Shown piece by piece: positions 9,147-64,000 of a stretch of 64,000 nucleotides of DNA (position 1 is the stretch's first letter; every line of letters starts with the position of its first letter). This DNA is from Candidatus Aenigmatarchaeota archaeon. GTDB taxonomy: Archaea > Aenigmatarchaeota > Aenigmatarchaeia > CG10238-14 > SCSR01. The notes under the pieces are model-generated. The model was not told the DNA's origin. It saw nothing but the letters and a program-made list of their open reading frames with translations, and ran no database searches. The position numbers were made by a program, and so were the translations under genes. The stretch is taken from assembly GCA_038998625.1 (NCBI GenBank), contig JAWADS010000001.1, positions 9,222 to 73,221 of the forward strand, given 5' to 3'.

Positions 9147-9193
9147 TTTTCTCTAAATTAAATTTGTTGTTCAAAAGATTTAATTAGTTTATA

Positions 9194-9724: not shown

Positions 9725-9731
9725 TCAACCA

Positions 9732-10280: not shown

Positions 10281-10310
10281 AATTAGAATTTGGTAAAAAA
10301 ACGATATAAA

Positions 10311-10772
10311 CTATTTCTCCATTATGGTTTCTAATACTTTTATTTTTTCTTCAAGCTCTTTTTTCTCTTTTAGCAAATTTTCAACTTTTATCTTTTCCTC
10401 TTTTTTTACAGCTTCTTCTAACTCTTCTAATACTTTTGAATACCTTTCTCTCAGCATGTCTAATGTTGGTTTCTTTTCTATAATCTTACTTCTCTTATAC
10501 ACCTGAGCAGAAATACCAAGAATAAATAAGGACAGGAATGCAGTTATAGCAAAAAAAGCTCCTAGCTGAGTTATAAAACCGGCAAAAAATGTAAAAAGGG
10601 CTGTAGATGCAAAAAGTGTAGTAAAAGTTAATGCTAAAAATAGATTTATCCTTCTGTTAAAAATTTTCATTCTTTCAAAAATTCCATATGAAATGAGAAA
10701 AACTATGGCAAAAGGGATAAAAAAATTAAATAAAAAATCCCTGAATTCTAAGCCTAAAATTTCCAAAGCCAT
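10311..10772 (-). CDS. membrane protein, paralog family member D with C-terminal coiled coil
   Basis: N-terminus LGLEFRDFLFNFFIPFAIVFLISYGIFERMKIF; C-terminal EELEEAVKKEEKIK heptads. Confidence 0.45.
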   Translation of the reverse strand: MALEILGLEFRDFLFNFFIPFAIVFLISYGIFERMKIFNRRINLFLALTFTTLFASTALFTFFAGFITQLGAFFAITAFLSLFILGISAQVYKRSKIIEKKPTLDMLRERYSKVLEELEEAVKKEEKIKVENLLKEKKELEEKIKVLETIMEK

Positions 10773-24898: not shown

Positions 24899-25276
24899 AT
24901 GAATTGGGAGGAATTATATAAAAAATATTCAAAGCCAAAAAAGAAAAAAATATTTCCTATTTTATTAGTTATAGTCTTTTCGACTCTATTTTTTCTCTTC
25001 ATATTATATTATTTTTCTTTACCAGAATTTATAGAGCCACAGGCTGAAATTGTAAGTGATGTAATAACTCTACCTTCTATAAAGGGCGAGCATTGCACAA
25101 TATATATAACTGGTCCAAATAATATAATAAAATTATTTTCGGAATATGATTGTAGCGAATATCAAATTTTTAGGTTTGAGATTTTAGATCTTTTTTCGGA
25201 TATTAAAGGTAGGTATAAGTTAGTTGTTGTTTCTGATTCAGGAAATAATTTGACGAAAAACTTTTTGGTGGTATAA
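24899..25276 (+). CDS. single-pass membrane protein, hypothetical
   Basis: 125 aa, N-terminal TM; stop overlaps start of giant gene (TAATG). Confidence 0.35.
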   Translation: MNWEELYKKYSKPKKKKIFPILLVIVFSTLFFLFILYYFSLPEFIEPQAEIVSDVITLPSIKGEHCTIYITGPNNIIKLFSEYDCSEYQIFRFEILDLFSDIKGRYKLVVVSDSGNNLTKNFLVV

Positions 25277-49599: not shown

Positions 49600-50754
49600 T
49601 TAACTTTTAAGAACTTTTTCAATTCTATTCATAGCTTCTTCAATCTTTTCATAGGCAGTAGCATAGCTTAACCTAACAAAACCCTCCCCATATTTTCCAA
49701 ATTCTGTCCCTGCCACAATGATAACCTTTGCTTTTTCAAAAATGAAATCTACAAATTTTTTCGACCTCATATTAAATGCTTCAATATTTGGAAAAACATA
49801 AAATGCGCCCTTCGGCATATTGAAGCGCACCCCTGGAATTTCTGATAATCTTTTACAAATCATTTTTCTTCTTCTATCATACTCCTTCCTCATTTTTTCT
49901 ACATAATTTCTGCATTTTTTTAAAGCTTCAACTGCAGCTAATTGATAAGCTGTGGGGGCAGATATAGTTGTTGCTAGTTTAAATTCCTTCATCTCCTTTA
50001 TAATTTCCTTTTTTGCTACAGCATAGCCCACTCTAAATCCACACATGGCATAAGATTTAGAGAAAGTTTGTGTGGTAATGGCATAATCAAACATTCCATT
50101 CAAACTAGCTAAGCTAATATGTTTTGTATTTTCATAAGTCAGTTTTTCATATGCTTCATCAACTAAAACAAAAATATCCTTATCCACCACAATATCAGCA
50201 ATTTCTTCCAAAGTTTTCTTGTTAAGCACATTACCAGTAGGATTAGAGGGAGTATTTATTATTAAAAGTTTTGTTTTTTTAGAAATCAGTTTTTTTAGCT
50301 CTTCACAATTAACTTCAAAACCATCTTCTTCCCTCAACTTTAAATCAACGGGAATTCCGCCTAGCATTTCCACTACTGGCCTATATGCTAAATAACCTGG
50401 ATTAGGAATTATTACTTCTTCTTTTGGATTTACTAAAGTTAAAACAGAAAGTAAAATAGCTTCTTTTGATCCCGTTGTTATAATAATTTCGTCAGGTGTA
50501 GCATCAATTTTATTTTCTTTTTTTAATTTTTCAGAGATGGCTTCCCGCAATTCTTTTTTGCCTTGTAGTGGAGCATAATGGGTAAATCCTTTTTTCAAAA
50601 ATTTATTAGCAGCATCCACAACAACTTTTGGGGCTGGAAAATCTGGCTCTCCAGCTCCTAGAGAAATTATATCCTTTCTTTGTTCCATTATTCTCAAGCT
50701 TTCTTCAATTTTACTAGGGCCCACAACTTTTGTTCTAAAAGCTAGTTCAGGCAT
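49600..50754 (-). CDS. PLP-dependent aminotransferase class I/II (aspartate aminotransferase-like)
   Basis: SFSKSYAMCGFRVGY (PLP Lys motif), NPSNPTG, about 384 aa. Confidence 0.75.
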   Translation of the reverse strand: MPELAFRTKVVGPSKIEESLRIMEQRKDIISLGAGEPDFPAPKVVVDAANKFLKKGFTHYAPLQGKKELREAISEKLKKENKIDATPDEIIITTGSKEAILLSVLTLVNPKEEVIIPNPGYLAYRPVVEMLGGIPVDLKLREEDGFEVNCEELKKLISKKTKLLIINTPSNPTGNVLNKKTLEEIADIVVDKDIFVLVDEAYEKLTYENTKHISLASLNGMFDYAITTQTFSKSYAMCGFRVGYAVAKKEIIKEMKEFKLATTISAPTAYQLAAVEALKKCRNYVEKMRKEYDRRRKMICKRLSEIPGVRFNMPKGAFYVFPNIEAFNMRSKKFVDFIFEKAKVIIVAGTEFGKYGEGFVRLSYATAYEKIEEAMNRIEKVLKS

Positions 50755-50789
50755 AATTATTATTTTTTCTTTTCTTTCAATAATAGATT

Positions 50790-52160
50790 ATGAGCTTAGA
50801 ATATTTTTTTAATCCGCAAACAGTGGCAATAATAGGAGCTAGCCATAAGCCAGGAAAAATTGGTTATACAATTCTCGATAATTTTGTAAATGGTGGTTTT
50901 CAAGGCAAAGTTTATCCTGTAAATCCCAACACAGAGCCAATATTAAATTTAAAAGTTTACCCTTCCATTAAAAAGGTTCCCGATTATATTGATTTGGCGG
51001 TAATTGCTGTAAAAGCTGAAATTGTTCCGAAAGTTTTGAAAGAATGCGTGGAGAAAAAAGTAAAGGCTGTAGTAATAATTTCCAGCGGATTTTCTGAGAT
51101 TGGCGAAAAGGGAAAGAAATTGGAAGAAAAATTAAGAAAAATTATAAAAAATAAATCGATTAGGGTAATTGGTCCAAATGTTATTGGTGTTTATGATTCT
51201 TCCACAAAAACAGACACCTTATTTTTATCAAGGGAAAAATTGAAAAGGCCAAAGGAAGGAGGTCTTTCTTTTATATCACAATCAGGAGCAGTAGGATCTA
51301 CAATTTTAGACATCCTTGCAAAAGAAAATATGGGTATAGCTAAGTTTATTTCTTATGGCAATGCTATTGATGTAAACGAAGCTGATTTAATTGAATATCT
51401 TGCTAAAGATGAAAAAACAAAAGTTATCGCAGTTTATTTAGAAGGAATAAAAGCAGATGGTAAAAAATTTATGGAGGTTGTAAGGAAGGCTAACAAAGTA
51501 AAACCAATAATCTTTTTGAAATCTGGAAAAAGTTTTCGAGGAATTAAGGCTGCAGCTAGCCATACTGGTGTCTTGGCAGGAAGTGCAAGAATTTTTTCTG
51601 CAGCCCTAAGGCAAGTTAGAGCTTTGGAAGCAAAGGAGTGGGAAGAATTTTTTGATGCTTGCAAGGTTTTGAATTCTCAACCATTACCTAAAGGCAAGGA
51701 AGTGATTATCATAACAAATGGTGGAGGTTTCGGGGTTTTAGCTACGGATGAGGCAGAAAAATTAGGTTTAGAATTGAAAGATCTATCTAAAAATTTAAAG
51801 GAAAAATTGAAAAAAAATTTTCCTGAATATGTAAGTTTTAGCAACCCATTAGATTTAACAGGTGATACCACAACAGAAAGATATAAAATTGCCTTAGAAA
51901 ACTGCCTGAAGGAATTTGATGGAGCTATTGTAATAATTTTATTTCAAGTTCCAACTTTGGATGAAAGCATTGTTGATGTTGTGGCTGAAATGCAAAAATT
52001 CAAAAAACCAATAGTTTGCTGTACTGCTGGTGGCAAATACACTGAAAAAATGATGGAAAGATTAGAAGAGAAAGGTCTGCCAGTTTTTAGTTCTCCAGAA
52101 AGAGCAGTAAGAAGTTATAATTTTTTAGTAAGGAGATTTTTACAAACCAAAAAACGATAA
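50790..52160 (+). CDS. acetyl-CoA synthetase (ADP-forming) alpha subunit / CoA-binding domain protein
   Basis: N-terminal CoA-binding VAIIGAS...GYTI; AASHTGVLAGS phosphohistidine loop; about 456 aa. Confidence 0.7.
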   Translation: MSLEYFFNPQTVAIIGASHKPGKIGYTILDNFVNGGFQGKVYPVNPNTEPILNLKVYPSIKKVPDYIDLAVIAVKAEIVPKVLKECVEKKVKAVVIISSGFSEIGEKGKKLEEKLRKIIKNKSIRVIGPNVIGVYDSSTKTDTLFLSREKLKRPKEGGLSFISQSGAVGSTILDILAKENMGIAKFISYGNAIDVNEADLIEYLAKDEKTKVIAVYLEGIKADGKKFMEVVRKANKVKPIIFLKSGKSFRGIKAAASHTGVLAGSARIFSAALRQVRALEAKEWEEFFDACKVLNSQPLPKGKEVIIITNGGGFGVLATDEAEKLGLELKDLSKNLKEKLKKNFPEYVSFSNPLDLTGDTTTERYKIALENCLKEFDGAIVIILFQVPTLDESIVDVVAEMQKFKKPIVCCTAGGKYTEKMMERLEEKGLPVFSSPERAVRSYNFLVRRFLQTKKR

Positions 52161-52212
52161 GCTTTATATACTTTTATTTTTCATTAGTATAGAAATATAG
52201 GTGAACGATAAA

Positions 52213-52320
52213 ATGGCAAGACAATACGAAGATGAGGAAGAGTCGGAAGAGTCTGAAGAATCTGAGGAGGAAGAGTGGGAAGAAGAAACTTCTGAAAGTT
52301 TCGACGAAGATTGGGAATAA
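52213..52320 (+). CDS. putative 35-aa highly acidic micro-protein
   Basis: ATG preceded by aGGTGAacgataaa; encodes MARQYEDEEESEESEESEEEEWEEETSESFDEDWE; not in ORF track (under 60 aa). Confidence 0.25.
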   Translation: MARQYEDEEESEESEESEEEEWEEETSESFDEDWE

Positions 52321-52515
52321 ATTTTTTGTATTTTTTTCTTTTTTAATTTTTCGGTAATTTTCTTTTTTGCGATAGATTATTTTTTACACAACAATAATTC
52401 TTGATGGCTTTTTTAGTACTTATATATGTAGTCATTATTTGATGGCGACATTTATAAGGAATACCATAATGGTTTTAAAACCTTACATCTAACTTTATTT
52501 TAGGTGATATAGAAA

Positions 52516-52803
52516 ATGGCAGTATTTGGAGGTTTAGTTGACCTCGGTGTTGCCATTCTATTGGTTGCAGCTTTAGCAGAATACTTTAAGTTTAGAGGTA
52601 AGGCAGACAAAGGATTTTCTTGGTTGGCTGTATCAGGAGTTTTCTTCGTCTTTGCAGGAACCTTCGGAACAGCAACCACATTAGGTTCATATATAGGATC
52701 TGCTGCTTGGGGAGGACTAGGGCAACTCTTTGAGGTCTTGGGTTGGTTGTTCGCACTAGTAGGAACAATATTTGTTGCCTATCAAACCCTAGTGGAGAGA
52801 TAG
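52516..52803 (+). CDS. small membrane protein (3 TM), hypothetical
   Basis: 95 aa; Gly/Ala-rich TM helices. Confidence 0.35.
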   Translation: MAVFGGLVDLGVAILLVAALAEYFKFRGKADKGFSWLAVSGVFFVFAGTFGTATTLGSYIGSAAWGGLGQLFEVLGWLFALVGTIFVAYQTLVER

Positions 52804-52919
52804 GCCAAATTTGATTTTTCCCTTTTTCCCCCTTTTTCTTTATTCTGGTTTCTATACAACACAATAATTTCATTGAAAGCTGAATTGTTTAAATTGTCAA
52901 AAAACAAATTAATAATCAA

Positions 52920-53855
52920 ATGAATAATCGAATGCCTTTGATTATTGGAGTCCTTTCAGGTAAGGGTGGAGTGGGGAAAACTACTTTGGTATCAAATTTA
53001 GGCGCATCCTTGGCAAAAGATTTTAACAAAAAAATTATTGTTGTTGACGGAAATATTTCCGCTTCACATCTAGGTTTGCATTTAAATCTTTATGAAGATT
53101 TTAAATTTACTTTAAAAGATGTTTTAGATGGAAAAGCTCCTGTTCAACATGCAATTTATATTCATCCAAATACAGGCTTAAGGGTTTTGACGGCCCCTCT
53201 AAAAGGAGAAAATGTTAAATTAGAAAAAATTGGTAGAGTTTTGAATCAGTTGAAGAATGATTATAATCTTATTCTTGTGGATACTGCTCCTGGATTGGGT
53301 AGAGAAGTTTTAACAGTGGCAAGACATTTGGATGGCGGCATTATAGTGACAACTCCAGATTTTCCAGCAGTAAGTGATGCTTTAAGAACTATAAAAATTT
53401 TAAAGAAAATTGGTGTAGATATTCTTGGAATAATTTTAAACAGAGTTAATGAAGAGAAATATGAATTAACAGAAAGCGAAGTGGAATCAACTTGTGAATA
53501 TCCTTGCGCATTGGTTATTCCCGAAGATAAAAATGTACCTGCATCTATAGCAAAAGGAATACCATTAGTCATAGAAAAACCTAATTCTAATGCTTCTATA
53601 GCAATAAAAAAATTGGCAGCAGCCCTAATGGGAGTGGAATATCAACCAAAGAATTTTTTATACAGAGTGAAGAGATTTTTTGGTTTAGTTGACATGCAAA
53701 TACCAAAGATTGTATTACCTGCCCCAAAGAAAGTTAAGTACAAAGCAATAGGGAAAAAAGAAAAAATGAGAGAGGAATTAAGAAAAGATATAAAGGAAGA
53801 ATTGAAAAAAGAATTAATTAGAAGATTGAGAGAAAAAATGGCAGAGAAGGAATGA
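52920..53855 (+). CDS. MinD/ParA-family P-loop ATPase with Lys/Glu-rich C-terminal tail
   Basis: Deviant Walker A GVLSGKGGVGKTT; LILVDTAPGL Walker B; 311 aa. Confidence 0.75.
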   Translation: MNNRMPLIIGVLSGKGGVGKTTLVSNLGASLAKDFNKKIIVVDGNISASHLGLHLNLYEDFKFTLKDVLDGKAPVQHAIYIHPNTGLRVLTAPLKGENVKLEKIGRVLNQLKNDYNLILVDTAPGLGREVLTVARHLDGGIIVTTPDFPAVSDALRTIKILKKIGVDILGIILNRVNEEKYELTESEVESTCEYPCALVIPEDKNVPASIAKGIPLVIEKPNSNASIAIKKLAAALMGVEYQPKNFLYRVKRFFGLVDMQIPKIVLPAPKKVKYKAIGKKEKMREELRKDIKEELKKELIRRLREKMAEKE

Positions 53856-54226
53856 AGATGATGCCAAAAACTGAAAATCTTTTGGATAAGCTAGCGGATG
53901 AGATAGCAGAATTAGCTACTAATTCTGAAAAAATAGAAAGAGTTATGAAGATTTTAGAAGAGCAAGATGCCATAGAAAAGAGAAATTCAAATGATATAAT
54001 TAATTTAAAAGAAAAAATTTCAATTCTTGAAGGCAAGCTTAACAAATTCCTAGAGGATTTTAAGATTTCTGTTGTGGAAGCTGAAAGAGAAATTACAGAA
54101 AGACATGAAAAAATCTTAAATGATATGGATAAGCAAATTGTTCGATTGCAGAGTCAGATAGAAGATTTGCGCACAGCAATTATAAGAATTAGCAATGAAG
54201 TAAAAAATCTGAAAGAAAGATTATAG
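53852..54226 (+). CDS. coiled-coil protein, hypothetical (overlaps the MinD-like gene stop)
   Basis: 124 aa, continuous heptads. Confidence 0.35.
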   Translation: MKMMPKTENLLDKLADEIAELATNSEKIERVMKILEEQDAIEKRNSNDIINLKEKISILEGKLNKFLEDFKISVVEAEREITERHEKILNDMDKQIVRLQSQIEDLRTAIIRISNEVKNLKERL

Positions 54227-54241
54227 ATTTATTTTGATTAT

Positions 54242-55009
54242 TCAAGAAATATATCTTAAAATCTTCAAGTAATTTTTTGTTAACCTATCTTTTAGGGCAC
54301 CTAACTTCTTTTTAATTATTTTATCTTTTGAATAACGAATTCCGTAGTTGAAAATTTTTATCCATTGTCTAGGATTTCGTACTAATTTACTTTTCAAAAG
54401 TCCTCCACCTCTTGGTAAAATTGGTATCGAAATTTCTCCTACTTTTAAGCCATGCTCAAGCGCCTTAAGGTTCATTTCTGTTTCTATGAGAAAGTCATTC
54501 GACTTTAGTTTCAACATCCTAAAACTATTTTTTCTTATTGCTCTAAAACCTGCGAGTGGATCTCCTTTTACATTAAAGCCAAGAATTTTAAAGAAACCTT
54601 TCATAAAAGGCATATATATAGAAAATATAAACTTGTACTTCCTATCCGAGTGTTTATTTTTCAAGTTTCTGGAAGCTAAAACTAAGTCATATTTTTCAAG
54701 CTTATCAATAAGTTTAGGAATATACTCAGGAGGATCCGTTCCATCACCATCCAAGAATATTAATTTATCACCTCTTGCAAATTTTGCACCTATTTTCATA
54801 GCATACCCTTTCCCTCTTTTCTTGATTTTTATGACCCTCGCTCCTAATCTTTTGGCAATAATAGGCGTCATATCTTTGGAAGAATCTACAACTATTATTT
54901 CGGAATTCTTTTTAATCTTATTCGGAATAGAACAAAGAACTTTTGCTATAGATTCCTCTTCGTTACATGTTGGAATAATTATAGATATAGGAATTTTTAC
55001 TCTATTCAT
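54242..55009 (-). CDS. family 2 glycosyltransferase
   Basis: IIIPTCNEEESI, VVDSSKD, FLDGDGTD (DxD) motifs. Confidence 0.7.
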   Translation of the reverse strand: MNRVKIPISIIIPTCNEEESIAKVLCSIPNKIKKNSEIIVVDSSKDMTPIIAKRLGARVIKIKKRGKGYAMKIGAKFARGDKLIFLDGDGTDPPEYIPKLIDKLEKYDLVLASRNLKNKHSDRKYKFIFSIYMPFMKGFFKILGFNVKGDPLAGFRAIRKNSFRMLKLKSNDFLIETEMNLKALEHGLKVGEISIPILPRGGGLLKSKLVRNPRQWIKIFNYGIRYSKDKIIKKKLGALKDRLTKNYLKILRYIS

Positions 55010-55122
55010 GATTTTTATTTAAATTGAGATAATAAAAAATTTGAAGGAAACTCTTTATCTTTTTACATATTTTTCATTTTGATACAAATTTCCATACTAT
55101 ATTGTTTAAAAATTTACATCAA

Positions 55123-55266
55123 TGCAGGGGGTGGGATTTGAACCCACGAAGGCACTAAGCCACGAGGTTTCTTATCTTCATCCTATCAGAGCTCAAGTAA
55201 ACCTCTATCTTGAGCTTCGCGCAACTTTAAAATCTCGCGCCATTGACCAGGCTAGGCGACCCCTGC
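55123..55266 (-). tRNA. tRNA-Leu(CAA) with about 58 nt of intron sequence (probably two introns flanking the anticodon loop)
   Basis: GCAGGGG-TC-GCC-TAGCCTGGTCAAT-GGC (Leu-type D arm)...CTCAAGA anticodon loop...TGGCTTAGTGCCTTC long variable arm-GTGGG-TTCAAAT-CCCAC-CCCCTGC-A; 144 nt against about 86 expected. Confidence 0.55.
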
Positions 55267-55314
55267 ATGCAATAGTAGAACACTTTAATAAATATTTTTT
55301 TCATTTAAAAAGTC

Positions 55315-55932
55315 TTATTCCTCAACAACTCCCAGGCCAGATCTAAGTTGTTCTATCTGACTTTTGAGGTCTGCTAGTGTGGCTTCTATGCTGGCTACTT
55401 CTTCCATATGGGGAAGTAATTCTTCTCTAAAGCCGCTAGGTCTTAGCAACTCAGAATCCAAATCCAAAATTTTTTGCTCAATTTTCTCTAAAGATTCTTG
55501 CACTAACTTTGAATTTTCTTCTCTAAGTTTATCTAATTCATTTAAAACAGCTAGGCTGTTTTTTAAAAGAACAATAGAAGTTTTCAATTGGGCCAAATGG
55601 TTTAAAATCTGTTTATATCTATCCAATTTAACAAAAAGAGGTGCAGTTAAAACTTTTTCATGTTTCTCTTTTTCTATTTTTTCTCTATGTACTAGAGGCT
55701 GAGTTTTTGTTTCTACTTTTGTTTCTACTTTTAGTGGAACTTTAACTTCTATTGAGGGTTCTTCCCCAGAAACTTCTTGTTGCTTGACCTCTAATTGTTT
55801 TTGCGGTTCTGATTTTATAGGCTCTGTTTTTTGCTCATTTTGTAATTTCATTATTTCTTCAATGGTAGGCAGCTTAATGTTTTCTTCTACCGGAGGAGCC
55901 GAAGTCTCTTTTTTCTTCCTTCCAAATATCAT
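55315..55932 (-). CDS. coiled-coil protein, hypothetical
   Basis: 205 aa; N-terminal low-complexity KE-rich region then heptads. Confidence 0.35.
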   Translation of the reverse strand: MIFGRKKKETSAPPVEENIKLPTIEEIMKLQNEQKTEPIKSEPQKQLEVKQQEVSGEEPSIEVKVPLKVETKVETKTQPLVHREKIEKEKHEKVLTAPLFVKLDRYKQILNHLAQLKTSIVLLKNSLAVLNELDKLREENSKLVQESLEKIEQKILDLDSELLRPSGFREELLPHMEEVASIEATLADLKSQIEQLRSGLGVVEE

Positions 55933-56008
55933 TGGTATCCTTAATTTCTTATTTCATTTTTTTAGATATAAGTTTTTGTTTTTACTTTCAACGATAAAAA
56001 TTTTGAAA

Positions 56009-56094
56009 TGCGCCAGCCGGGATTTGAACCCGGGCCCTAAGCTTGGCAAGCTTCCACAACTTTTTATGTCCTAACCAGGCTAGACTACTGGCGC
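56009..56094 (-). tRNA. tRNA-Gly(GCC) with predicted 12-nt intron in the 5' half of the anticodon stem
   Basis: GCGCCAG-TA-GTCT-AGCCTGGTTA-GGAC-A-TA[aaaagttgtgga]AGC-TTGCCAA-GCTTA-GGGC-CCGGG-TTCAAAT-CCCGG-CTGGCGC-A. Confidence 0.6.
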
Positions 56095-56105
56095 TCACCA
56101 AATTA

Positions 56106-56399
56106 TCAACCAAATATATTACCAAATCCAATATTAGCTTTATTCTCTTCTTCTTTAATTTTTCTTATTACTTTATTCTCTTCTTCTTTATTTAGAGGTT
56201 TAGATAAATCTTTAGTCGAATCTATAGCTCTTTTACACTGCTCTTCTGTCCCAGAAATATAACAGTAATGACCTTCTTTGTTTAGCAGAGTTTTAGCATC
56301 TTTAAAAATTATGCTTGCCCTTGATACAATATCATCTTTAAGTAAGATTTCCCTAACTTTTTGCAGATTTTTATTATCAATTAAAAGTACTATTTCCAT
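56106..56399 (-). CDS. hypothetical protein
   Basis: 97-aa ORF. Confidence 0.3.
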   Translation of the reverse strand: MEIVLLIDNKNLQKVREILLKDDIVSRASIIFKDAKTLLNKEGHYCYISGTEEQCKRAIDSTKDLSKPLNKEEENKVIRKIKEEENKANIGFGNIFG

Positions 56400-56813
56400 A
56401 AAATTTTCTCCTTAATTACTATTTATCACTATTTTGTTATAAAAAGCTTTAAGTTTTCGTAAGATTTAAAAGGCTTATTTTTCAAATAAGAATTTAAGAC
56501 CAAACATGTTAACAAAAATAATAGGGTTGTATTTAATATTTGATGGGATAGTAAGCTGGCTGATATATAAAAGGCAGAAAATACTAATATTGGGCAAAAA
56601 GATTGTATCACTTTATCCCTTTAGCAAACATCATAAGATAAGAAACAAGGGAATAGTTAAAACAGTAAAACAAGATTTAAACGAGCACCTACCTAGATTC
56701 TTTAGAGTAATACTAGGCTTTACTTTGGTAGTTACACCTCTACCAATATAATATCCTGAATTCTTGTTTCCAGTGAGAGGTTTGCCTTTTTCTTCTATTT
56801 TTTAATTTTCAAA

Positions 56814-56899
56814 AGCCCCGAGTGGGATTTGAACCCACGACCCAGTGCTTACGAGGCACTTAAGCTTAAATTTGCTCTACCAGACTGAGCTATCGGGGC
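56814..56899 (-). tRNA. tRNA-Thr(CGU) with predicted 12-nt intron between D arm and anticodon stem
   Basis: GCCCCGA-TA-GCTC-AGTCTGGTA-GAGC-A-[aatttaagctta]-AGTGC-CTCGTAA-GCACT-GGGTC-GTGGG-TTCAAAT-CCCAC-TCGGGGC-T. Confidence 0.6.
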
Positions 56900-56972
56900 G
56901 AAGAGTTGTGCACATGAAATTATAATATCTTTCGAAGCGATATTTATTTATAGCCATATTTTTGGTGATCTT

Positions 56973-58007
56973 TTGAAGAAAAGCAGAAAGAGGGAATTAC
57001 AAGAAGGAATGTTTTGGGAAAAGGAAAAAAATGGAATAAGATGTTACATTTGTGCGAGAAAGTGCTTTATCGCCAAAGATAAGAGAGGATATTGTTTAGT
57101 AAGGAAAAACATTAATAATAAATTATTTGTTTTGAATTATGGCAAAATTGTTTATTCAGCTCCAGAGCCCATGGAAAAGCTGCCACAATTTCATTTTTAT
57201 CCAGGAAAGCTCACTTTTTCTATAGCATCGCCTGGAAGTAATTTTGCCTATCAGCCCAACGAAATTCTTCAAATTTTCAAGGATAAAGATCAGGAAGAAG
57301 TGAAGGGTGAAGATTGGACCCCAGAAAAAGTTGTGAAAAAAGCTGAGACGAGCAAATGCGTAGCCATAAGCTATACGGCCACAGAGCCTGCAATGTATTA
57401 TGAATTTATGTTTAAAGTAGCTAGGGCAGCTTATAGAAGCAATATAAAAAACATTATTGTTACCAATGGTTTTATGACCCTGGAGGCGATTAAAAAAATT
57501 GTTAAATTCTTAAATGCCGCTACAGTTAACATTTACGCTTCGGCTGATGAGCAGTTTTATTCAAACTACATGCAAGTAAAAAAACTCGACCCAATTTTTG
57601 ATGTTTTAAAGCAAATGAAAAAACATAGGGTGCACATAGAAATTGCCAATTGGATATTTCCTCAAATAGGAGATAGCATAGAAAATTGTAGAAAATTAGC
57701 TCAATGGATATCTTCTGAACTAGATTCTGATGTGCCCATGCATATTATGAGATTTTATCCTGATCATAAATTCTCAGAATTGCCTGCCACGCCAGCAGCT
57801 ACTTTAGAAAAATGCATAGAAGAAGCGAGAAAGACTGGATTAAGGCATGTATATATAGGCAATGTTCCTGGACATATGGATGAAAATACCTACTGCTATA
57901 ATTGCAGAAATCTTTTAATAGAAAGAAAAGGGTTTCAAGTAAAAAAGATTAATCTCGCTAAAGAGAGATGTCCATATTGTGGAGTAAGAATTAACATTGA
58001 GGTTTAA
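56973..58007 (+). CDS. AmmeMemoRadiSam-type radical SAM homolog with degenerate (Cys-less) cluster motif
   Basis: N-terminal IRCYICARKCFIAKDKRGYCLVRKN and C-terminal CYNCRNLL...CPYCG match AMMECR1-associated radical SAM enzymes, but the expected CxxxCxxC site reads SPGSNFAYQPN. Confidence 0.5.
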   Translation: MKKSRKRELQEGMFWEKEKNGIRCYICARKCFIAKDKRGYCLVRKNINNKLFVLNYGKIVYSAPEPMEKLPQFHFYPGKLTFSIASPGSNFAYQPNEILQIFKDKDQEEVKGEDWTPEKVVKKAETSKCVAISYTATEPAMYYEFMFKVARAAYRSNIKNIIVTNGFMTLEAIKKIVKFLNAATVNIYASADEQFYSNYMQVKKLDPIFDVLKQMKKHRVHIEIANWIFPQIGDSIENCRKLAQWISSELDSDVPMHIMRFYPDHKFSELPATPAATLEKCIEEARKTGLRHVYIGNVPGHMDENTYCYNCRNLLIERKGFQVKKINLAKERCPYCGVRINIEV

Positions 58008-58032
58008 AAAACTTTAAGAACAATGTGAAGAT

Positions 58033-58464
58033 ATGCTGACCAAAGAGGAAATAGAAGAAAAGTTGGAAAAGGGTTGGATAAAATCTAGGCTATGGTTTGA
58101 AGTTATGTCTACTGATAAAACTCTTACAGAAAAAACTTTGAAAGAGCATATAGAGAAACTGAAAAAGGAAAAATTTACTATTGTGATAAATGAAAGGTAT
58201 GAAAAGGTAGAAGAGGTTGAAAAGCCTAGGCAAAATTTGGAAAAGGCTTATTCTCAAGCTGTAGAAGTAGAAATTTTAACAAAAGATATTGAAACATTAC
58301 TTTTTGATGTTATATTTTTTGCTCCTAGTGCAGTGGAAATTTTAGAACCAAAAGAGTTAAAAGTCGGAATAGATACATTGCAAACAATAATGAACTCTGT
58401 AGCAGACATTTTACATAGATTTGCTTCTGTGGGTGGTGGTATAATAATTTCAACAAAAAAGTAA
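58033..58464 (+). CDS. hypothetical protein
   Basis: 143-aa ORF, charged helical N-terminus. Confidence 0.3.
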   Translation: MLTKEEIEEKLEKGWIKSRLWFEVMSTDKTLTEKTLKEHIEKLKKEKFTIVINERYEKVEEVEKPRQNLEKAYSQAVEVEILTKDIETLLFDVIFFAPSAVEILEPKELKVGIDTLQTIMNSVADILHRFASVGGGIIISTKK

Positions 58465-58502
58465 AGATTTAATTAAAATTTTCCTGTCTTTTCAAAATTT
58501 AC

Positions 58503-58671
58503 TACCACTTTTAGGAGTTCTAAATCTATATAAATTTTTCTATTTTTTCCTAGTTTTATTTATAAAGATTTTGTACCACTTTTAGGAGTTCCAACTCCTA
58601 AGAGTTGTATTTCCAATGCTTTTTAAAGCCTTTATATAGATTGCGAACCACCAATGGTGGTTCTAAATCTA
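58503..58671. promoter_or_regulatory. cluster of repeated and palindromic motifs (candidate operator sites)
   Basis: taccacttttaggagttc at 58503 and 58574; palindromes ggagttccaactcc (58585-58598) and gaaccaccaatggtggttc (58645-58663); ttctaaatcta repeated at 58518 and 58661. Confidence 0.45.
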
Positions 58672-58709
58672 GATAAAGGGGAAAATTTTTCAAAAAAGTT
58701 TACAAAGAA

Positions 58710-58760
58710 GGACCTCGCGCCTATATTCTTTGTTTTATATCTCGCGCGAGGTGGACCGCC
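58710..58760. other. GC-rich inverted repeat/hairpin in AT-rich intergenic DNA
   Basis: ggacCTCGCGCctatattctttgttttatatctcGCGCGAGgtggacc: 8-9-bp GC stem with about 24-nt AT-rich loop. Confidence 0.4.
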
Positions 58761-58814
58761 CAGTGGAGCGAACCAATAAAAAAATTAAAAACCTTAAAAA
58801 ATTAATTAGAAAAT

Positions 58815-59720
58815 GTGAAACAATTTACAACCTTTTCAGTATTATTACTCTTTATTTTTCTTTTGTTTAGCCCTTTAACTTTGGCCCAAATTCAATTTTA
58901 TAGTGCAGATAATGCTTTAAGCAAAGAAGGAAAAACTTTTGTGAAAAAAATAATAACTTTTTACTTCCCTGAAAAAACCTTTGAATTTTCTATTTTTGGA
59001 AAAATTGAAAATTTTCAAGCAAGTAGCAATGCTGGCCCAGTGAGTTGTGAAGTGAAATCAGAAGCTGTAAGTATAGTTAAATGTTTTATGAATTTAACAC
59101 CAGAAAAAAGGACTTTAGAGCTGAGCTATGAAACTTTTGATTTTGTTAAAAAAATAGATAAAAAATTTTATTTTAATGGGGATTTTAGTATTTATAAAAA
59201 TATAACTTCAGCATATTTTGCTGTTAGGCTTCCTGAAGGTGCGGCCATAAGCTCAGATCTTGCAATTAGCTCAATACTCCCAGAAAATTATCAAACAGTT
59301 AGTGATGGTAGAAGAATAATTGTTCAATGGAATATGAATAACATTTCGAGTGCTCAATCATTGAAGTTACAAGTAATATATGAAGAAGTAACCTCAACTA
59401 TTGTTGGTTTAACTCTTCAGCAATTACTTTTAGCGAGTGTATTAGCAGCGGCAGGCACAGGTTTATTTTTGTATAAAAGAATAAAAAAACCTAAGGAAGT
59501 AATCCTTTCAGTTTTAGATGAAAATGAAAGAAAAGTTATTGAGATATTAAGCGCTGCTGGTGGTGAATTAAACCAAAAAAGGATAGTTCAAGAAACAAAT
59601 CTTTCTAAAGCAAAAGTTAGCAGGCTAATAAAAAGCCTTTCTCAGAGGGGTTTAATAGAGGTTCAAAGGACGGGCAGAACAAATAAGATAAAATTGGTAA
59701 AAACTAAATTTATGGAATGA
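58815..59720 (+). CDS. membrane-tethered transcriptional regulator (extracellular domain, one TM, C-terminal winged HTH)
   Basis: Signal peptide; TM LLLASVLAAAGTGLFLY; C-terminal ERKVIEILSAAGGELNQKRIVQETNLSKAKVSRLIKSLSQRGLIEVQRTGR wHTH (MarR/TrmB-like). Confidence 0.55.
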   Translation: MKQFTTFSVLLLFIFLLFSPLTLAQIQFYSADNALSKEGKTFVKKIITFYFPEKTFEFSIFGKIENFQASSNAGPVSCEVKSEAVSIVKCFMNLTPEKRTLELSYETFDFVKKIDKKFYFNGDFSIYKNITSAYFAVRLPEGAAISSDLAISSILPENYQTVSDGRRIIVQWNMNNISSAQSLKLQVIYEEVTSTIVGLTLQQLLLASVLAAAGTGLFLYKRIKKPKEVILSVLDENERKVIEILSAAGGELNQKRIVQETNLSKAKVSRLIKSLSQRGLIEVQRTGRTNKIKLVKTKFME

Positions 59721-59975
59721 AAAAGAAAAAATAAGTCTTTTTTTAAAAAAATTGACTTAAAATTTCCGTAGAAACAATTATCTCGTTAATTTTATATATT
59801 AGAAACAATTAAAAGAATTATTTTATAATCTGTTTTTAACTAAGAAATTGTTTCAAGAAATTTTTATATACATTATAAATCAAAATTAACTTTAAGAAAT
59901 CCCAAGCGCTGTAGACTATAGAATCGAGATGATATAGTTTACAGTGAAGAAAAAATTAGAAGGTGAAATGGAAAA

Positions 59976-62237
59976 ATGCAAATTAAGAAATGGGTTGCCA
60001 CGGGTTTATCAGCCTTAATGGCTGGAGCAACCTTGGCAGGAGCTGTTTTAGCCGCACCACTAAGTAACTACCCTGCTTTCTTTGGTGGGGAAGTTCCTTA
60101 TGTGGTGATTGGCGCCACTGCAGCTTCTAGTGATGTAGTAGGAGCAGTAGACATAATGGCTAGCTTGGCAGGTGTTTCTGTTGTAGAGAAAACCGTGCCA
60201 GGCGTGCCCACTACTCAAGTTTTGGGAATCGAAAGAAAGGTAGTGATCCCAACTACTAACGCAGGTTCAGTTATAGCATCAACTACTCCAAATGCAAATC
60301 AATTTCCAATTCCACTAAAGACATATCACTTTAGTGGATTGTTACAAGGACAATTTAGCTATAAAGGGACAAGCTATAACTATCATGAAGAAGTTAATTT
60401 TGGTACAACAAATCCAATCCTAACTCATAGCTTAACAACCTACGTAAATGGAACACTAAAAATGAAAGTAGATACTAATGCAGTAGAATACCGTTATGTA
60501 TTTGATAACACAATACCGGCATCTGATTTCAACTTCCAAACAGCCAATACAACAAGCTATCAAAATCCAGTGTCAGTTAAGGTAGCTGGTAAAGATTTCT
60601 TAATAGTAGCAGTACCATCCTCAAGCTCCTTTGTTGCTCTAACAGGAACTGTAGGATGGGTAACTGCTGGTTCAACAACAGGCTTAACAGTCGGTGATTT
60701 GACAGCATTAGTAGATGCTGTATATCAGAACACTCAAGCATCAATAAGAATAGTTGACAAAGACGGCAATCTAGTTGCTAATTTGGGTGTAGTGGGAACA
60801 GATGCAAGAAGTTTTACATTTGGAGGCAAGACTTACAAAATTAAAGTATTAAATACCGCACTATCTACTAAAGAATCAGTTGCTGATAGTGCGCAATTAG
60901 TATTCGGGGAAGGAGATGTAGAAAAAACTTACGACGGAAGTGATACAGCAGTAATAGCAGATTGGGGTCCTCAGTGGAAGATTTCTGGAAATTTCCCTAC
61001 AGCAGGTCAAATTCAAGCTGGCAATTACATAAAAGTAGTTTATAGTCCAGCAACTCTAGATGAGGCCCAAAAGTATTATGAGGCTGGATCTAAGTTCTTG
61101 GGTCCAGGCGGTTACTTTGAGTTAAGCTATGCTGGCCTTACTCCAGATAAATTTGCTAAAGTTACTATAGCTCCGGTGTCAGGCAAAACAGTATACAATT
61201 CAACAGCAGCTTCAGGATATTCAACTTGGAGCGGCTTAAATGGACTAGAGTTTTCAACAGATGTTGGTGGCACTATAGTATATGGCGGAGTAGGATATGA
61301 TAAAACATATCTTCTCTTTAATGCATCAGATTCAGCAAGTCTCTTTAATGGTACTTTCTATTGGTTAGGTTACTTCGATAAAAACACTAATAGAATAGTA
61401 AATTTAACAGCGCCAGAAAAAATAAATGACACCACCTATAGAACATTCAAATTTGATTTGTCATATGGTGGGAGCGCAGCAGTAACATACAGTGTATGGG
61501 GTGAATTTGATGGATCAACTTTGTTAAACAATTTGACAATAAATACAACAGGAGCACCAGAGGAAGTTGTTCTTGCATATAGAAATAGAACAGCTTCTTC
61601 AACCACAGCATCTCCAGAGTTAGTGTTGGGACCTACAGCAGCCAAGTCAGAATCTAATGATGTCAGAGCAACGGTAGAAGGTAGTCTTAGTGATATATCT
61701 CTTCAAGAAAAGGATGTATTAACTGACAATGGAGTAATAGTATACACAGTAAAAGGAAATGCAGATGCAGATAAGGCCGTAGTAGGAATACCTCCAGAAA
61801 CAGTTTATGGTTTAGTACAGTTTGGTAAAGTAGTTGCAACAACAGGTGCCGGTCAGACTTACAAGGAATTTGTCCCAGTTACTGCCGCTGTGGCTAAGCT
61901 AGATAGCGAGCTTACAACTGCTGCTGATAGAGGAGCAAAGCATCTAATCCTGGTTGGAGGTCCTTGTGTAAATACCCTAGTTGCTGATTTGGCAACTGCG
62001 GGTAAGTTCCCATACACATGTGCCACCTGGCCAGGAAGAGACTTTGGTATGATTAAAGTAATAGACGATGCCTTTGCAACTGGTAAGATAGCGGTAGTTG
62101 TGGCTGGAACAAGGGCAGCTGATACAAGATTGGCAGCTTCTGTGTTACAGCAATATGCAACAAGACTAGCTGGTGTGGCAGCCAGTACAGTAGAAGTAAC
62201 TGGTACAACTGCAGCTCCTGTAGTAACTCCAGTATAA
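59976..62237 (+). CDS. secreted surface protein, S-layer candidate
   Basis: Signal peptide MQIKKWVATGLSALMAGATLAGAVLA; 753 aa rich in T/S/G/A/V with many N-x-T/S sequons; SD-like AGGTGA 9 nt upstream; codon usage more GC-rich than neighbours. Confidence 0.5.
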   Translation: MQIKKWVATGLSALMAGATLAGAVLAAPLSNYPAFFGGEVPYVVIGATAASSDVVGAVDIMASLAGVSVVEKTVPGVPTTQVLGIERKVVIPTTNAGSVIASTTPNANQFPIPLKTYHFSGLLQGQFSYKGTSYNYHEEVNFGTTNPILTHSLTTYVNGTLKMKVDTNAVEYRYVFDNTIPASDFNFQTANTTSYQNPVSVKVAGKDFLIVAVPSSSSFVALTGTVGWVTAGSTTGLTVGDLTALVDAVYQNTQASIRIVDKDGNLVANLGVVGTDARSFTFGGKTYKIKVLNTALSTKESVADSAQLVFGEGDVEKTYDGSDTAVIADWGPQWKISGNFPTAGQIQAGNYIKVVYSPATLDEAQKYYEAGSKFLGPGGYFELSYAGLTPDKFAKVTIAPVSGKTVYNSTAASGYSTWSGLNGLEFSTDVGGTIVYGGVGYDKTYLLFNASDSASLFNGTFYWLGYFDKNTNRIVNLTAPEKINDTTYRTFKFDLSYGGSAAVTYSVWGEFDGSTLLNNLTINTTGAPEEVVLAYRNRTASSTTASPELVLGPTAAKSESNDVRATVEGSLSDISLQEKDVLTDNGVIVYTVKGNADADKAVVGIPPETVYGLVQFGKVVATTGAGQTYKEFVPVTAAVAKLDSELTTAADRGAKHLILVGGPCVNTLVADLATAGKFPYTCATWPGRDFGMIKVIDDAFATGKIAVVVAGTRAADTRLAASVLQQYATRLAGVAASTVEVTGTTAAPVVTPV

Positions 62238-62338
62238 AATTAGCTCCAGTCTATATAGGCTGAATTTGCCGACTTTTTTATTTTCTTTGTTTTTTGAATT
62301 AATTGTTTCTTGAGTAGAATTTTTAGGAAAGTCTAAAT

Positions 62339-62890
62339 ATGGTTTTGAGAATAAAAATTACAAGGGAGCAAATAATTGGATTTACTTCTTTACTACTTTT
62401 GTTTTTAGTGGGAATTTATCTTTATCTAAACTTTTATCCTGTAAGAACGGTAGTGATTGATGGTACACCCATAACTTTTAGGCAAAATATTAAGGAAGCA
62501 AAAAATGTTTTAGTTTTCCCCAATGAAGATGAAATATTCAATAAACTTTTCAATACAGCAGTAATTAACATAACCTTTGTTTTTAAAGATGCTGGGGAAA
62601 GGGAAAATCCTTATTATATTTTACAAGAAGTAGAGATAATAAATAAACTGACTTTTGCATACGCTAGACTTAATAGAAAAGTTAATTTTAACGCTATGCC
62701 CATCGAAACCTATGAAAATCTTAGAGGCACAATTTACAATCCCATTATAGCTTTAATTCATCCTATTTATGCCAATGAAACTTTTGTTATGGTAAAGGAT
62801 AATGTGATTTTTATTTCTGGTAAAAACTATAAAGATTTTGATTTAGCGACAATAAGATTCTTATCTATTGCTTTAAATATAAAAATTTGA
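62339..62890 (+). CDS. single-pass membrane protein, hypothetical
   Basis: 183-aa ORF with N-terminal TM. Confidence 0.3.
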   Translation: MVLRIKITREQIIGFTSLLLLFLVGIYLYLNFYPVRTVVIDGTPITFRQNIKEAKNVLVFPNEDEIFNKLFNTAVINITFVFKDAGERENPYYILQEVEIINKLTFAYARLNRKVNFNAMPIETYENLRGTIYNPIIALIHPIYANETFVMVKDNVIFISGKNYKDFDLATIRFLSIALNIKI

Positions 62891-62915
62891 TATTTGAAAA
62901 ATAAAGTAGGGTTTT

Positions 62916-64000
62916 ATGTATTGGATTGATGCAATATTGCTCGCAGCATTGTTTCTAATTTGTTATACCATGACATTTCATTTAATTCTTTGGTTTGAAA
63001 ATCGAAACCATTTGTATAAAAGAGGTTATAAAAAACAAAAATTGCCTGACTTAAGTTTAATCATTCCTGCTTACAATGAATCTAATGGAATTTTGAATAC
63101 CTTAAAGAGATTGCTAAAGGTTAATTATCCAAGAAATAAGCTAGAGGTTTTAGTTATCGATGATGGAAGTGAAGATAATACTTATCAAATAGCAAAGGAT
63201 TTTTCTAAAAGACATAAATTCATTAAAGTTTTCAGGAAAAGGCATTCTGGTAAAGCAGCCAGCATAAATTTTGGAATTCTTAAAGCTAAGAATGAATTTG
63301 TTGGTGTTATGGATGCTGATAGCCATTTAACTCCTAATGCTTTGCTGAATTGTATGAAATATTTTAATTCTGATGATGTTGCTGCAGTCACAACTAGAAT
63401 TTTAGTAAAACAAAAGAAAACCCTTTTAGAAAAATGGCAAGATATAGAATTCAAAATAATTGCTTTGGCTAGAAAAATTAAGGAAAGTTTAAATCTTATT
63501 GATGTAACTCCAGGGCCTTTGAGTATTTACAGGAAAAAAGCTTTAATTAAGGTCGGAATGTTTGACGAAAAAAATCTCTTGGAAGATATGGAAATAGCAT
63601 GGCGCCTTTTAAAATATGGTTATAAAATAAATATGGCCTATGATGCTAAAGTCTACACTTTTTACCCTGGAAAATTTTTGGCATGGTTAAAACAAAGAAC
63701 AAGATGGCATATTGGGTGGCTTCAGATAATAACAAAATACCTTAATTCTATATTTAAAGATCATCCTGTCGGAACTTTTCTTTTACCTGTTGCATTGTTA
63801 AGCGTAGCTTTTCAGGCAATAGTAACGGGAATAATTATTTATTTGTTTTTAACTTGGTTAATAACCATGATTTATTATATTCATAACTCTTTAGTACTAA
63901 AAATAATGCCACAGATTTTCTATTTTGATTTTCAACCAAACATTTTTACTTTTTACGGAATTTTGTTCTCTATTTTGGGTATCTATTTTTCATTAGTTAT
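62916..64000 (+). CDS. family 2 glycosyltransferase with QxxRW motif (processive-type, cellulose/chitin-synthase-like), truncated by window end
   Basis: ATG at 62916; IIPAYNES, VIDDGSED, MDADS, QRTRWHIGW motifs followed by TM helices; ORF runs to window end and is absent from ORF track. Confidence 0.65.
   Translation, partial: MYWIDAILLAALFLICYTMTFHLILWFENRNHLYKRGYKKQKLPDLSLIIPAYNESNGILNTLKRLLKVNYPRNKLEVLVIDDGSEDNTYQIAKDFSKRHKFIKVFRKRHSGKAASINFGILKAKNEFVGVMDADSHLTPNALLNCMKYFNSDDVAAVTTRILVKQKKTLLEKWQDIEFKIIALARKIKESLNLIDVTPGPLSIYRKKALIKVGMFDEKNLLEDMEIAWRLLKYGYKINMAYDAKVYTFYPGKFLAWLKQRTRWHIGWLQIITKYLNSIFKDHPVGTFLLPVALLSVAFQAIVTGIIIYLFLTWLITMIYYIHNSLVLKIMPQIFYFDFQPNIFTFYGILFSILGIYFSLV

Follow-up and report, generated by a model that had tools for sequence, protein, structure and literature searches.

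A selectively maintained AmmeMemoRadiSam-family protein without cluster cysteines, a probable pseudoenzyme of Candidatus Aenigmatarchaeota

Can a member of a radical SAM family be kept by selection after the cysteines that hold its [4Fe-4S] cluster have gone, and, if so, for what? The question is raised by a gene of Candidatus Aenigmatarchaeota located at 56973..58007 (+) of the 64-kb stretch of DNA analysed here (the window), which has a TTG start and encodes a protein of 344 aa (NCBI MEM5801836.1) of the AmmeMemoRadiSam family (TIGR04337). To our knowledge, the widespread triad of AMMECR1, Memo and a radical SAM protein is still without an assigned biochemical function. AMMECR1 and MEMO1, the human homologs of two of its components, are disease-linked, and a comparative-genomics proposal on Memo-AMMECR1 systems was reportedly made by Burroughs et al. 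in JBC in 2019. A search of the literature on cluster-less radical SAM homologs and on radical SAM proteins of Aenigmatarchaeota found nothing relevant.

Family assignment and loss of the cluster cysteines

The description of the product as AmmeMemoRadiSam-like in the initial annotation is confirmed by its TIGR04337 score of 245.8 bits (curated cutoff 220), which is obtained in one unbroken alignment of residues 14-340 with profile positions 3-329 of 349 and is about 50-65 bits below that of intact relatives. PF04055 is matched by residues 108-230 (profile positions 21-152 of 166; 41.6 bits, gathering threshold 29.5) in an alignment that begins at profile position 21, past the cluster motif, and the best HMM matches of the ORF outside the family are activases (YjjW, PFL-AE and others). 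The family motifs EKxPxFHFxP, VTNG, PQIGD, PxHxxxFxP and GLRYVY are present, as are the N-terminal CX2CX3C...C and the C-terminal CxxC...CxxC modules, while the defining CxxxCxxC and the D-x-K residues of the SAM site are missing. Formal alignment to both profiles upheld the family membership and placed no three cysteines at the cluster site. No second family copy was found in the window.

In a MAFFT alignment of the protein with 120 homologs, the decayed [4Fe-4S] loop (57234..57269, +) reads G88-S-N-F-A-Y-Q-P-N-E-I-L, as compared with G-C-N-F-R-C-x-F-C-x-N-W: the first ligand is replaced by Ser89, the second by Tyr93, and the third falls inside a three-residue deletion, in agreement with the reported loss of the cysteine triad. 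Cysteines occur at positions 24, 27, 31, 41, 129, 239, 281, 308, 311, 333 and 336 of the protein; since residues 42 to 128 contain none, no alignment could put three cysteines at the cluster site, and the misalignment that had been offered as an alternative is refuted. A frameshift was ruled out, both other reading frames across the motif carrying stops and no hidden Cys codons. A sequencing artefact was excluded because the identical protein is found on three NCBI contigs and because the window matches contig JAWACS010000004.1 along 11.7 kb at 99.87% identity. NCBI labels MEM5801836.1 as an active 'AmmeMemoRadiSam system radical SAM enzyme', and such names are given because most degenerate proteins still pass the HMM cutoff; as a consequence, radical-SAM capacity is over-counted in metabolic reconstructions of Aenigmatarchaeota.

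SAM site, fold and terminal Cys4 modules

Loss of constraint in the degenerate forms is concentrated at the cluster loop, the GGE flanks, Y167, D186/K188 and K197. The equivalent of the GGE motif (57372..57389, +), which was located with a PFL-AE profile alignment and a constraint table, is Y134-T-A-T-E138-P139 where intact enzymes have Y-T-Y-T-E-P; the profile alignment sets Y136-T137-E138 opposite G77-G78-E79 of PFL-AE, and Glu138 is retained while constraint is gone at T135, Y136 and T140. At the position of the intact D-x-K, aligned with D129/K131 of PFL-AE, the protein has N186-I-Y188 (57528..57536, +), D186 being found in 95% of intact versus 2% of degenerate forms and K188 in 100% versus 49%. 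In PFL-AE, Asp129 coordinates a cation which is in contact with the carboxylate of SAM (PMC10267522). Retained across the degenerate clades are the eight terminal cysteines and about 60 other invariant positions, among which are the SAM-motif positions E138, T164-N165-G166 and H257. Gained constraints are few, among them K159 (98% of degenerate versus 29% of intact forms) and H221 (in three sub-clades), and hence no new catalytic motif is evident.

The AF2 model of the 344-aa protein has a pLDDT of 94.3, falling to 76-85 at the decayed cluster loop, and a pTM of 0.91, and according to this model the partial (beta/alpha)6 TIM-barrel fold, similar to that of PFL-AE, is preserved. When compared with the PDB using Foldseek, its top match is PFL-AE 3CB8 (E 8.6e-11; TM 0.74, normalised to PFL-AE), and the best 48 matches are radical SAM enzymes without exception. 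At the sequence level, a PDB search with the single protein gave no match and a profile search only weak matches to YydG and PFL-AE; no structure of any TIGR04337 family member was found in the PDB searches.

The retained pocket bears on the possibility that the cluster-free barrel was repurposed, as a sensor or for other chemistry, to bind SAM, SAH, MTA, 5'-deoxyadenosine or another nucleoside-like ligand. Not only E138, T164-N165-G166 and H257 but also S190, E223 and P230-G233-D234 are invariant in all degenerate clades, and together with the new constraints at K159 and H221 and the wholly preserved fold (AF2, Foldseek) this would fit a ligand-binder or a non-radical enzyme. The invariance of E138, T164-N165-G166 and H257 also counts against a pure pseudoenzyme, as these residues could reflect a nucleoside-type ligand that is still bound rather than a purely structural site. 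The retained pocket residues may, however, be structural, and much of what would hold SAM has disappeared: the Asp aligned with Asp129 of PFL-AE and the adjacent Lys are gone, the GGE flanks are relaxed, and the unique iron of the cluster, normally the anchor of the methionine end of SAM, is gone as well. In addition, the loops of the sub-clades were rebuilt in unrelated ways, one carrying a 7-residue deletion, which speaks against a shared new active site. We consider repurposing of this kind unlikely.

The N-terminal Cys4 module, C24-x2-C27-x3-C31-x9-C41 (57042..57095, +), was delimited by conservation and by the AF2 strands of this region (15-18, 21-24, 32-34, 44-47 and 50-53), which form short beta-hairpins; conservation of its four cysteines is 94-100% in each of the groups, whether intact or degenerate. 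The C-terminal module, C308-x2-C311 ... C333-x2-C336 (57894..57980, +), is zinc-ribbon-like, with four cysteines that are 100% conserved in all groups, small zinc-finger proteins of the HVO_2753-like type as a weak profile match (E 0.009) and, in the AF2 model, a beta-hairpin (314-326) between the two CxxC knuckles. Both elements, already described as intact from the sequence, are therefore at least 94% conserved in intact and degenerate relatives alike. The N-terminal CX2CX3C...C motif could be an Fe-S cluster site, which is a point against the pseudoenzyme reading. As C24-x2-C27-x3-C31 mirrors CxxxCxxC, the protein might still be a radical SAM enzyme that carries a non-canonical cluster on other cysteines. 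Non-canonical cluster motifs are known in the superfamily (ThiC, Dph2 and HmdB), and the strict conservation of the N-terminal motif is compatible with such a site; however, this motif and its fourth cysteine are equally conserved in the intact enzymes and hence are not a replacement, four cysteine ligands would leave SAM no free iron, D186 and K188 are missing from the SAM site, and the cluster loop is wholly deleted in one sub-clade. An evolutionary rate that is about doubled and the presence of an intact paralog (both described below) also argue against continued radical chemistry, which we regard as very improbable.

Distribution, selection and chromosomal context

The complete CxxxCxxC is missing in 45 of the 120 nearest database relatives (Candidatus Aenigmatarchaeota), in which at least seven decay patterns can be distinguished, whereas in a metagenome scan the family members outside the Aenigmatarchaeota lineage were intact in 77 of 77 cases among the matches listed, most of which were distant relatives. 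None of the 17 Q-type relatives, whose identity goes as low as 48%, has the cluster cysteines. About two state changes are needed on the NJ tree of the rSAM proteins, with which a tree built without the motif columns agrees, and about six on the tree of a neighbouring gene; on the basis of these trees, cluster loss may have happened at least twice independently.

Comparison with a 77%-identical ortholog gave a pN of 0.126 and a pS of 0.81, and with a 61%-identical ortholog a pN of 0.24 and a pS of 0.82, corresponding to a pN/pS of approximately 0.16-0.29 with saturated synonymous sites. Relative to the neighbouring DUF7343 gene, degenerate copies evolve at a rate of 0.86 versus 0.45 for intact copies, i.e. 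about 1.9-fold faster, and the Cys-less gene is still slower-evolving than this neighbour. Conservation of the Cys-less state in relatives, which the initial annotation had marked for checking, was thus borne out: the dead state is shared and is accompanied by strong purifying selection. The lost catalytic residues and the raised rate could also belong to a decaying pseudogene, a functionless remnant awaiting deletion, but this explanation is essentially refuted by the selection data. Every degenerate relative examined has an unbroken reading frame, even at a pairwise identity of approximately 48%, the roughly 60 positions that stay invariant include the 8 metal-site cysteines, and the confidence of the AF2 model is very high. 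Moreover, dead genes of 1 kb are rarely kept in small genomes of the DPANN type, and we find a pseudogene hardly credible.

The gene lies in a conserved chromosomal slot with the order 97-aa gene, rSAM, DUF7343, S-layer. Its upstream edge is a conserved divergent 97-aa gene (56106..56399, -), which in 48 loci is the neighbour of the rSAM gene in the slot, and its downstream markers are a DUF7343 winged-helix membrane protein (58815..59720, +; PF24034, E 2e-18), encoded downstream in both intact and degenerate loci, and an S-layer protein (S_layer_C; 59976..62237, +; PF05124, E 1.3e-18), which is supported by synteny. The identical slot in sister Aenigmatarchaeota is filled by an intact enzyme, of which the Cys-less gene is the positional ortholog; the shared slot indicates that the gene is a long-standing occupant of this position in which catalysis was lost, rather than a dead duplicate of recent origin. 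An MJ0538-family (PF27325) gene encoding 143 aa (58033..58464, +), so named because Pfam annotates its counterparts at L175, a near-identical NCBI locus, and at loci L001, L004 and L009, starts 25 nt downstream of the rSAM gene and is probably co-transcribed with it. This gene is an optional neighbour, following 7 of 26 degenerate and 3 of 23 intact slot genes, and its presence is not clearly linked to degeneration. The MJ0538-like protein of the window had no NCBIfam, PDB or local-Pfam match, and the pLDDT of its single-sequence AF2 model (36) is too low for use.

In the place that AMMECR1 takes in intact sister loci, synteny and tblastn identified a gene-free interval of 355 nt (52161..52515), flanked by a CoA-ligase gene (50790-52160) and a 95-aa gene (52516-52803); AMMECR1 is found between these two markers in loci L007, L008, L014-L017 and L076. 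Members of the TIGR04337 family are expected to occur in a genome together with an AMMECR1-type protein A (TIGR04335/PF01871) and a Memo-type protein B (TIGR04336/PF01875). Using Aenigmatarchaeota AMMECR1 and one Pfam-verified Memo as tblastn probes, neither gene was detected in the 64-kb window and an extra 8.9 kb of L175 (approximately 73 kb in total). AMMECR1 is located 2.5-5 kb upstream of the slot gene in 7 of 16 intact versus 0 of 18 degenerate loci (raw counts, not corrected for phylogeny). Decay of the slot copy thus goes together with a missing neighbouring AMMECR1 gene, which is also absent nearby in 9 of the 16 intact loci.

The same genome encodes an intact paralog, P0273 (contig JAWACS010000006.1, assembly GCA_038998975.1), a 'type-2' protein that keeps the CxxxCxxC in the motif GCNWRCLFCQNW. 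P0273 belongs to the same family (TIGR04337, 294 bits) and is 45% identical to the Cys-less protein over the full length, groups with family members of other phyla and not with the slot copies, and, unlike the Cys-less gene, is encoded among unrelated neighbours (nitroreductase, DUF72, UDG). Synteny had predicted a second copy beyond the genes for Nre, SNase and CBS; the walked sequence ends inside the CBS gene, and the paralog proved to lie on another contig. Type-2 copies in related genomes have a Memo gene about 7 kb away. A degenerate slot copy is combined with an intact type-2 copy in other genomes as well (L031 and L036, on one contig; L034 and L026; L045 and L028), and an intact second copy beside a degenerate one is present in at least 3 of 21 GTDB assemblies, plus GCA_038998975.1. 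With P0273 in the same genome, the Cys-less protein can fairly be called a catalytically dead paralog that has been kept.

Proposed role and comparison with known systems

With a probability of roughly six in ten, we interpret the protein as a pseudoenzyme, i.e. a full-length, folded descendant of the AmmeMemoRadiSam family that is kept by selection without canonical radical chemistry: homology to the family is combined with loss of the cofactor residues, and the dead state and purifying selection extend across species. From these sequence comparisons we infer a non-catalytic role, in binding or as a scaffold or regulator, and most likely the protein would act as a binding module stabilised by a metal site (Zn or auxiliary Fe-S), possibly with the active paralog, and not as an enzyme. 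According to the scenario we propose, the ancestral slot enzyme would, besides catalysis, have bound its protein or ligand target or a partner; catalysis would have become dispensable once the intact paralog covered it and/or the neighbouring AMMECR1 partner was lost, after which the cluster loop and SAM site would have decayed in several lineages independently of one another, with selection for binding or scaffolding preserving the remainder of the protein.

A more daring and, in our estimate, doubtful proposal is that the slot protein serves as an obligate non-catalytic (prozyme-like) subunit or substrate-presenting adaptor for the intact paralog, or as a cluster-free nucleoside/SAM sensor wired to the DUF7343/S-layer module. 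Should either version be true, the rSAM proteins of AmmeMemoRadiSam systems would possess a binding function that is separable and does not depend on the cluster, and this function could serve to capture the target of the system. The large natural set of cluster-less, selected rSAM subunits suggests a second role that does not need the cluster, most plausibly in target or partner binding, and would provide oxygen-insensitive material for pull-downs and structures; it also illustrates clearly how a cofactor site, once freed from catalytic constraint, decays step by step and repeatedly.

The nearest solved fold is that of PFL-AE (3CB8/3C8F) and the glycyl-radical activases, whose motifs are paired one to one by the profile alignment. 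Docking to a protein substrate is a feature of these activases, and our proposal of a retained binding role is founded on it. Unlike PFL-AE, to which it is only 13% identical, the Cys-less protein has extra N- and C-terminal Cys4 modules, lacks the cluster cysteines, and has no evident glycyl-radical enzyme partner. A second comparison is provided by the AdoMetDC 'prozyme' of trypanosomatids, a pseudoenzyme partner of an active paralog. What the two systems have in common, by analogy only, is a dead paralog that is kept by selection beside an active one.

An AmmeMemoRadiSam family protein without cluster cysteines

The gene at 56973..58007 (+), exactly the interval initially annotated, has a TTG start and encodes a 344-aa protein in a window with a G+C content of about 31%. 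The protein is present at NCBI as MEM5801836.1, MEM5805293.1 and MEM5809454.1 under the name 'AmmeMemoRadiSam system radical SAM enzyme [Candidatus Aenigmatarchaeota archaeon]', and positions 52336-64000 are 99.87% identical to NCBI contig JAWACS010000004.1 (GCA_038998975.1). The gene is flanked by a tRNA-Thr (56813-56891, -) and by a gene of the MJ0538 family (PF27325; 58033-58464, +; 143 aa), which starts 25 nt on its 3' side and with which it is probably co-transcribed. An unusual tRNA-Phe of 86 nt with anticodon AAA (56009-56094, -; ARAGORN) could reflect a miscall or a tRNA that contains an intron. Elsewhere the window carries four tandem paralogous genes (8601-10772, -) whose products (150-180 aa) resemble one another in their hydrophobic N-termini, and a separate giant ORF (25276-32682, +; 2468 aa) with a signal-like N-terminus.

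Assignment to the AmmeMemoRadiSam family was borne out by alignment with TIGR04337, which runs without interruption from residue 14 to residue 340 and scores 245.8 bits, against a curated cutoff of 220 bits; the runner-up NCBIfam matches, glycyl-radical activases, reach at most 35 bits. The PF04055 match begins at profile position 21, i.e. past the cluster motif. In a MAFFT alignment of the protein with its best 120 homologs, G88-S-N-F-A-Y-Q-P-(gap of 3)-N-E-I stands opposite the consensus G-C-N-F-R-C-x-F-C-x-N-W, so that the first and second cluster ligands (C1, C2) correspond to Ser89 and Tyr93 and the third (C3) is deleted. The initial annotation had noted this absence and allowed for misalignment as its cause; the latter is refuted, since no alignment could yield a triad from the cysteines present (24, 27, 31, 41, 129, 239, 281, 308, 311, 333 and 336), and translation of the motif region in the other frames meets stops and yields no cysteine. 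The terminal elements are intact as described (N-terminal C-x2-C-x3-C-x9-C, C-terminal CxxC...CxxC). The protein cannot bind the canonical SAM-activating cluster.

Repeated cysteine loss at a conserved chromosomal site

The best 120 database matches (47-100% identity, several named Candidatus Aenigmatarchaeota) comprise 75 with an intact GCNFxCxFC motif and 45 without. The Cys-less state is shared by relatives: 17 sequences, with pairwise identities down to 48%, have the same type, G-x-N-F-x-x-x-P..EI...FKD, with zero cysteines. Other degenerate states are GCNxFSxFC (C2 lost), GNNFRCSFC (C1 alone lost), GCDLNEHFC, GPxxxSQFS, GKNLRGQFF and a simple deletion of the loop (7 residues). Because C2 and C3 are retained in one lineage and C1 and C3 in another, their common ancestor would have had all three cysteines, and loss must have occurred independently at least twice. 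The neighbour-joining tree of the radical-SAM proteins implies about two changes between intact and degenerate states and that of the neighbouring DUF7343 protein about six (3-8 in bootstraps), for which reason the apparent single degenerate clade may partly reflect long-branch attraction. Among the metagenome-scan matches listed, the motif is intact in all 77 family genes of other archaea and bacteria, and the sole degenerate genes are three, all from the Aenigmatarchaeota site; the genome-scan loci listed from outside Aenigmatarchaeota are all intact.

This site has the same gene order throughout the phylum and in the window (49600-62237): an aminotransferase (-), an ADP-forming CoA ligase, a 95-aa gene, farther on a 97-aa gene (-), the radical-SAM gene, an optional MJ0538-family gene, and then genes for a wHTH protein with DUF7343, for an S-layer protein and for GT2. 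Its occupant is an intact enzyme in some genomes and a degenerate copy in others, and the protein studied here is therefore the positional ortholog of the intact enzymes. In seven loci of relatives with an intact copy (L007, L008, L014-L017 and L076), the CoA ligase and the 95-aa gene have AMMECR1 (PF01871) between them, 2.5-5.3 kb upstream of that copy; the same position in the window is an empty interval of 355 nt (52161-52515). Where at least 5.4 kb of sequence upstream of the gene was available, AMMECR1 accompanies 7/16 intact versus 0/18 degenerate copies (Fisher p = 0.002, phylogeny not corrected for).

Several further features of the site were observed. The MJ0538-family gene directly follows both degenerate and intact TIGR04337 genes, also in L090, L081, L032, L062 and L074, and the adjacency extends to Altiarchaeota and Methanobacteriota contigs, which hints at a wider linkage. 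The 97-aa protein (56106-56399, -) has no Pfam or NCBIfam match and carries in nearly all of 48 loci a near-invariant acidic C-terminal tail, KIKEEE.KA.EGFG.IFG, which we take to resemble the C-terminal tail with which aP1, a protein of the archaeal ribosomal stalk, binds GTPases. In L173, a distant Radical_SAM-like gene (6549-7658, +; 369 aa; 24% identical to our protein) follows the 95-aa gene, at the AMMECR1 spot of other loci; this genome also has two intact copies of the family. Intact copies of four Aenigmatarchaeota genomes (L037 4381-6048, L038 8354-10780, L039 417-2819, L044 1260-2906) contain inteins directly after the third cysteine (GCNFRCQFC/F...); PF14890 was found in one such protein, P0063.

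A second, distinct family lineage (type-2; LSYAC-x-GCNW-x-C-x-x-CCN) is located away from this site, is intact in every case and clusters with family members of other phyla; in L030, L036 and L043 a Pfam-verified Memo gene lies about 7 kb from it. Type-2 accompanies the degenerate copy in at least 3 of 21 GTDB assemblies that have the latter (JAWBWS01, where L031 and L036 share a single contig of 257,712 bp, CAZICS01 and CALIKW01) and in the genome studied here. Its type-2 protein, P0273 (contig JAWACS010000006.1; 294 bits against TIGR04337), is 45% identical to the Cys-less protein, in keeping with the earlier description of the latter as a paralog; since both belong to GCA_038998975.1, one genome appears to carry a dead copy, orthologous by position to putatively active enzymes, and a live paralog. 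The C-terminal ribbon of P0273 (L178 10001-11029) has only three cysteines (ER-PNC versus RCPYC), so metal-site decay would affect different modules in the two paralogs. In one genome, an intact type-2 gene (L171 11009-12124, -) convergently overlaps that for SAM synthetase (MetK), a fitting neighbour for a predicted active SAM-consuming enzyme.

Selection and residue-level decay

Comparison with orthologs of 77% and 61% identity gave pN values of 0.126 and 0.24 with saturated pS values of 0.81 and 0.82, so omega is well below 0.3; a decaying pseudogene is rejected by these data. Relative to the DUF7343 neighbour, degenerate copies evolve about 1.9 times as fast as intact ones (distance ratio 0.86 versus 0.45) but have not reached the rate of the DUF7343 gene itself.

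Where intact enzymes are at least 90% conserved, degenerate proteins have lost constraint in the cluster loop (C89, F91, C93, F95, C96, an N and S99), on the approach to it (D65, P66, K70, G78), at the GGE flanks (T135, Y136, T140, F142), at Y167 after the TNG motif, and at D186, K188, K197 and a few further positions. In a profile alignment, D186 and K188 stand opposite D129 and K131 of E. coli PFL-AE, Y136-T137-E138 opposite its GGE motif (G77-G78-E79) and T164-N165-G166 opposite T105-N106-G107. The side chain of Asp129 in PFL-AE helps to coordinate the monovalent cation of the active site, and this cation is in contact with the SAM carboxylate too (PMC10267522). D186, a SAM-site residue that our protein has lost, is conserved in 95% of intact versus 2% of degenerate family members, so decay appears to have reached the SAM site in addition to the cluster. 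That a non-canonical cluster still supports radical chemistry is unlikely, given this loss of SAM-site residues and the equal presence of the N-terminal Cys4 motif in intact enzymes.

Conservation of at least 85% persists at all eight terminal cysteines and at about 60 more positions, among them E68, H74, F75, P77, E138, E144, T164-N165-G166, S190, E223, P230-G233-D234, P255-H257-F261, T273 and G289-R291-Y294. Several pocket residues are still invariant, as would suit a different enzyme or a sensor that binds its ligand without a cluster, a reading we consider less likely. Conservation was gained at very few positions (K159; H221 in three sub-clades; F102 and D104 in the type studied here), a pattern of loss of one function without invention of a new active site.

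A proposed retained function and the predicted structure

We propose instead that the protein, which is conserved and under selection, still performs some ancestral task that needs no catalysis. Docking to a target or partner is the most plausible one, because among characterised proteins its closest relatives, the glycyl-radical activases, bind substrates that are proteins. The need for catalysis may have gone once the intact paralog supplied it and/or the adjacent AMMECR1 partner was lost. Pseudoenzymes as a category and non-canonical radical-SAM motifs are already known; no description of cluster-less AmmeMemoRadiSam proteins was found in the searchable literature, and public annotation labels them as active enzymes. 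The case is a clean one, in which the cofactor site that defines the family was lost repeatedly and the loss has been maintained by selection.

The AlphaFold2 model (54-sequence alignment) predicts a folded protein with a pLDDT of 94.3 and a pTM of 0.91, confidence falling only over the rebuilt loop (residues 91-110). A PDB search found no solved structure of the AmmeMemoRadiSam radical-SAM family. The C-terminal CxxC...CxxC segment weakly matches small archaeal zinc-finger proteins (E 0.009). For the whole model, the best Foldseek match in the PDB is PFL-AE (3CB8/3C8F/8FO0; E about 1e-10, TM 0.74 normalised to PFL-AE), and the remaining matches are exclusively other radical-SAM enzymes.
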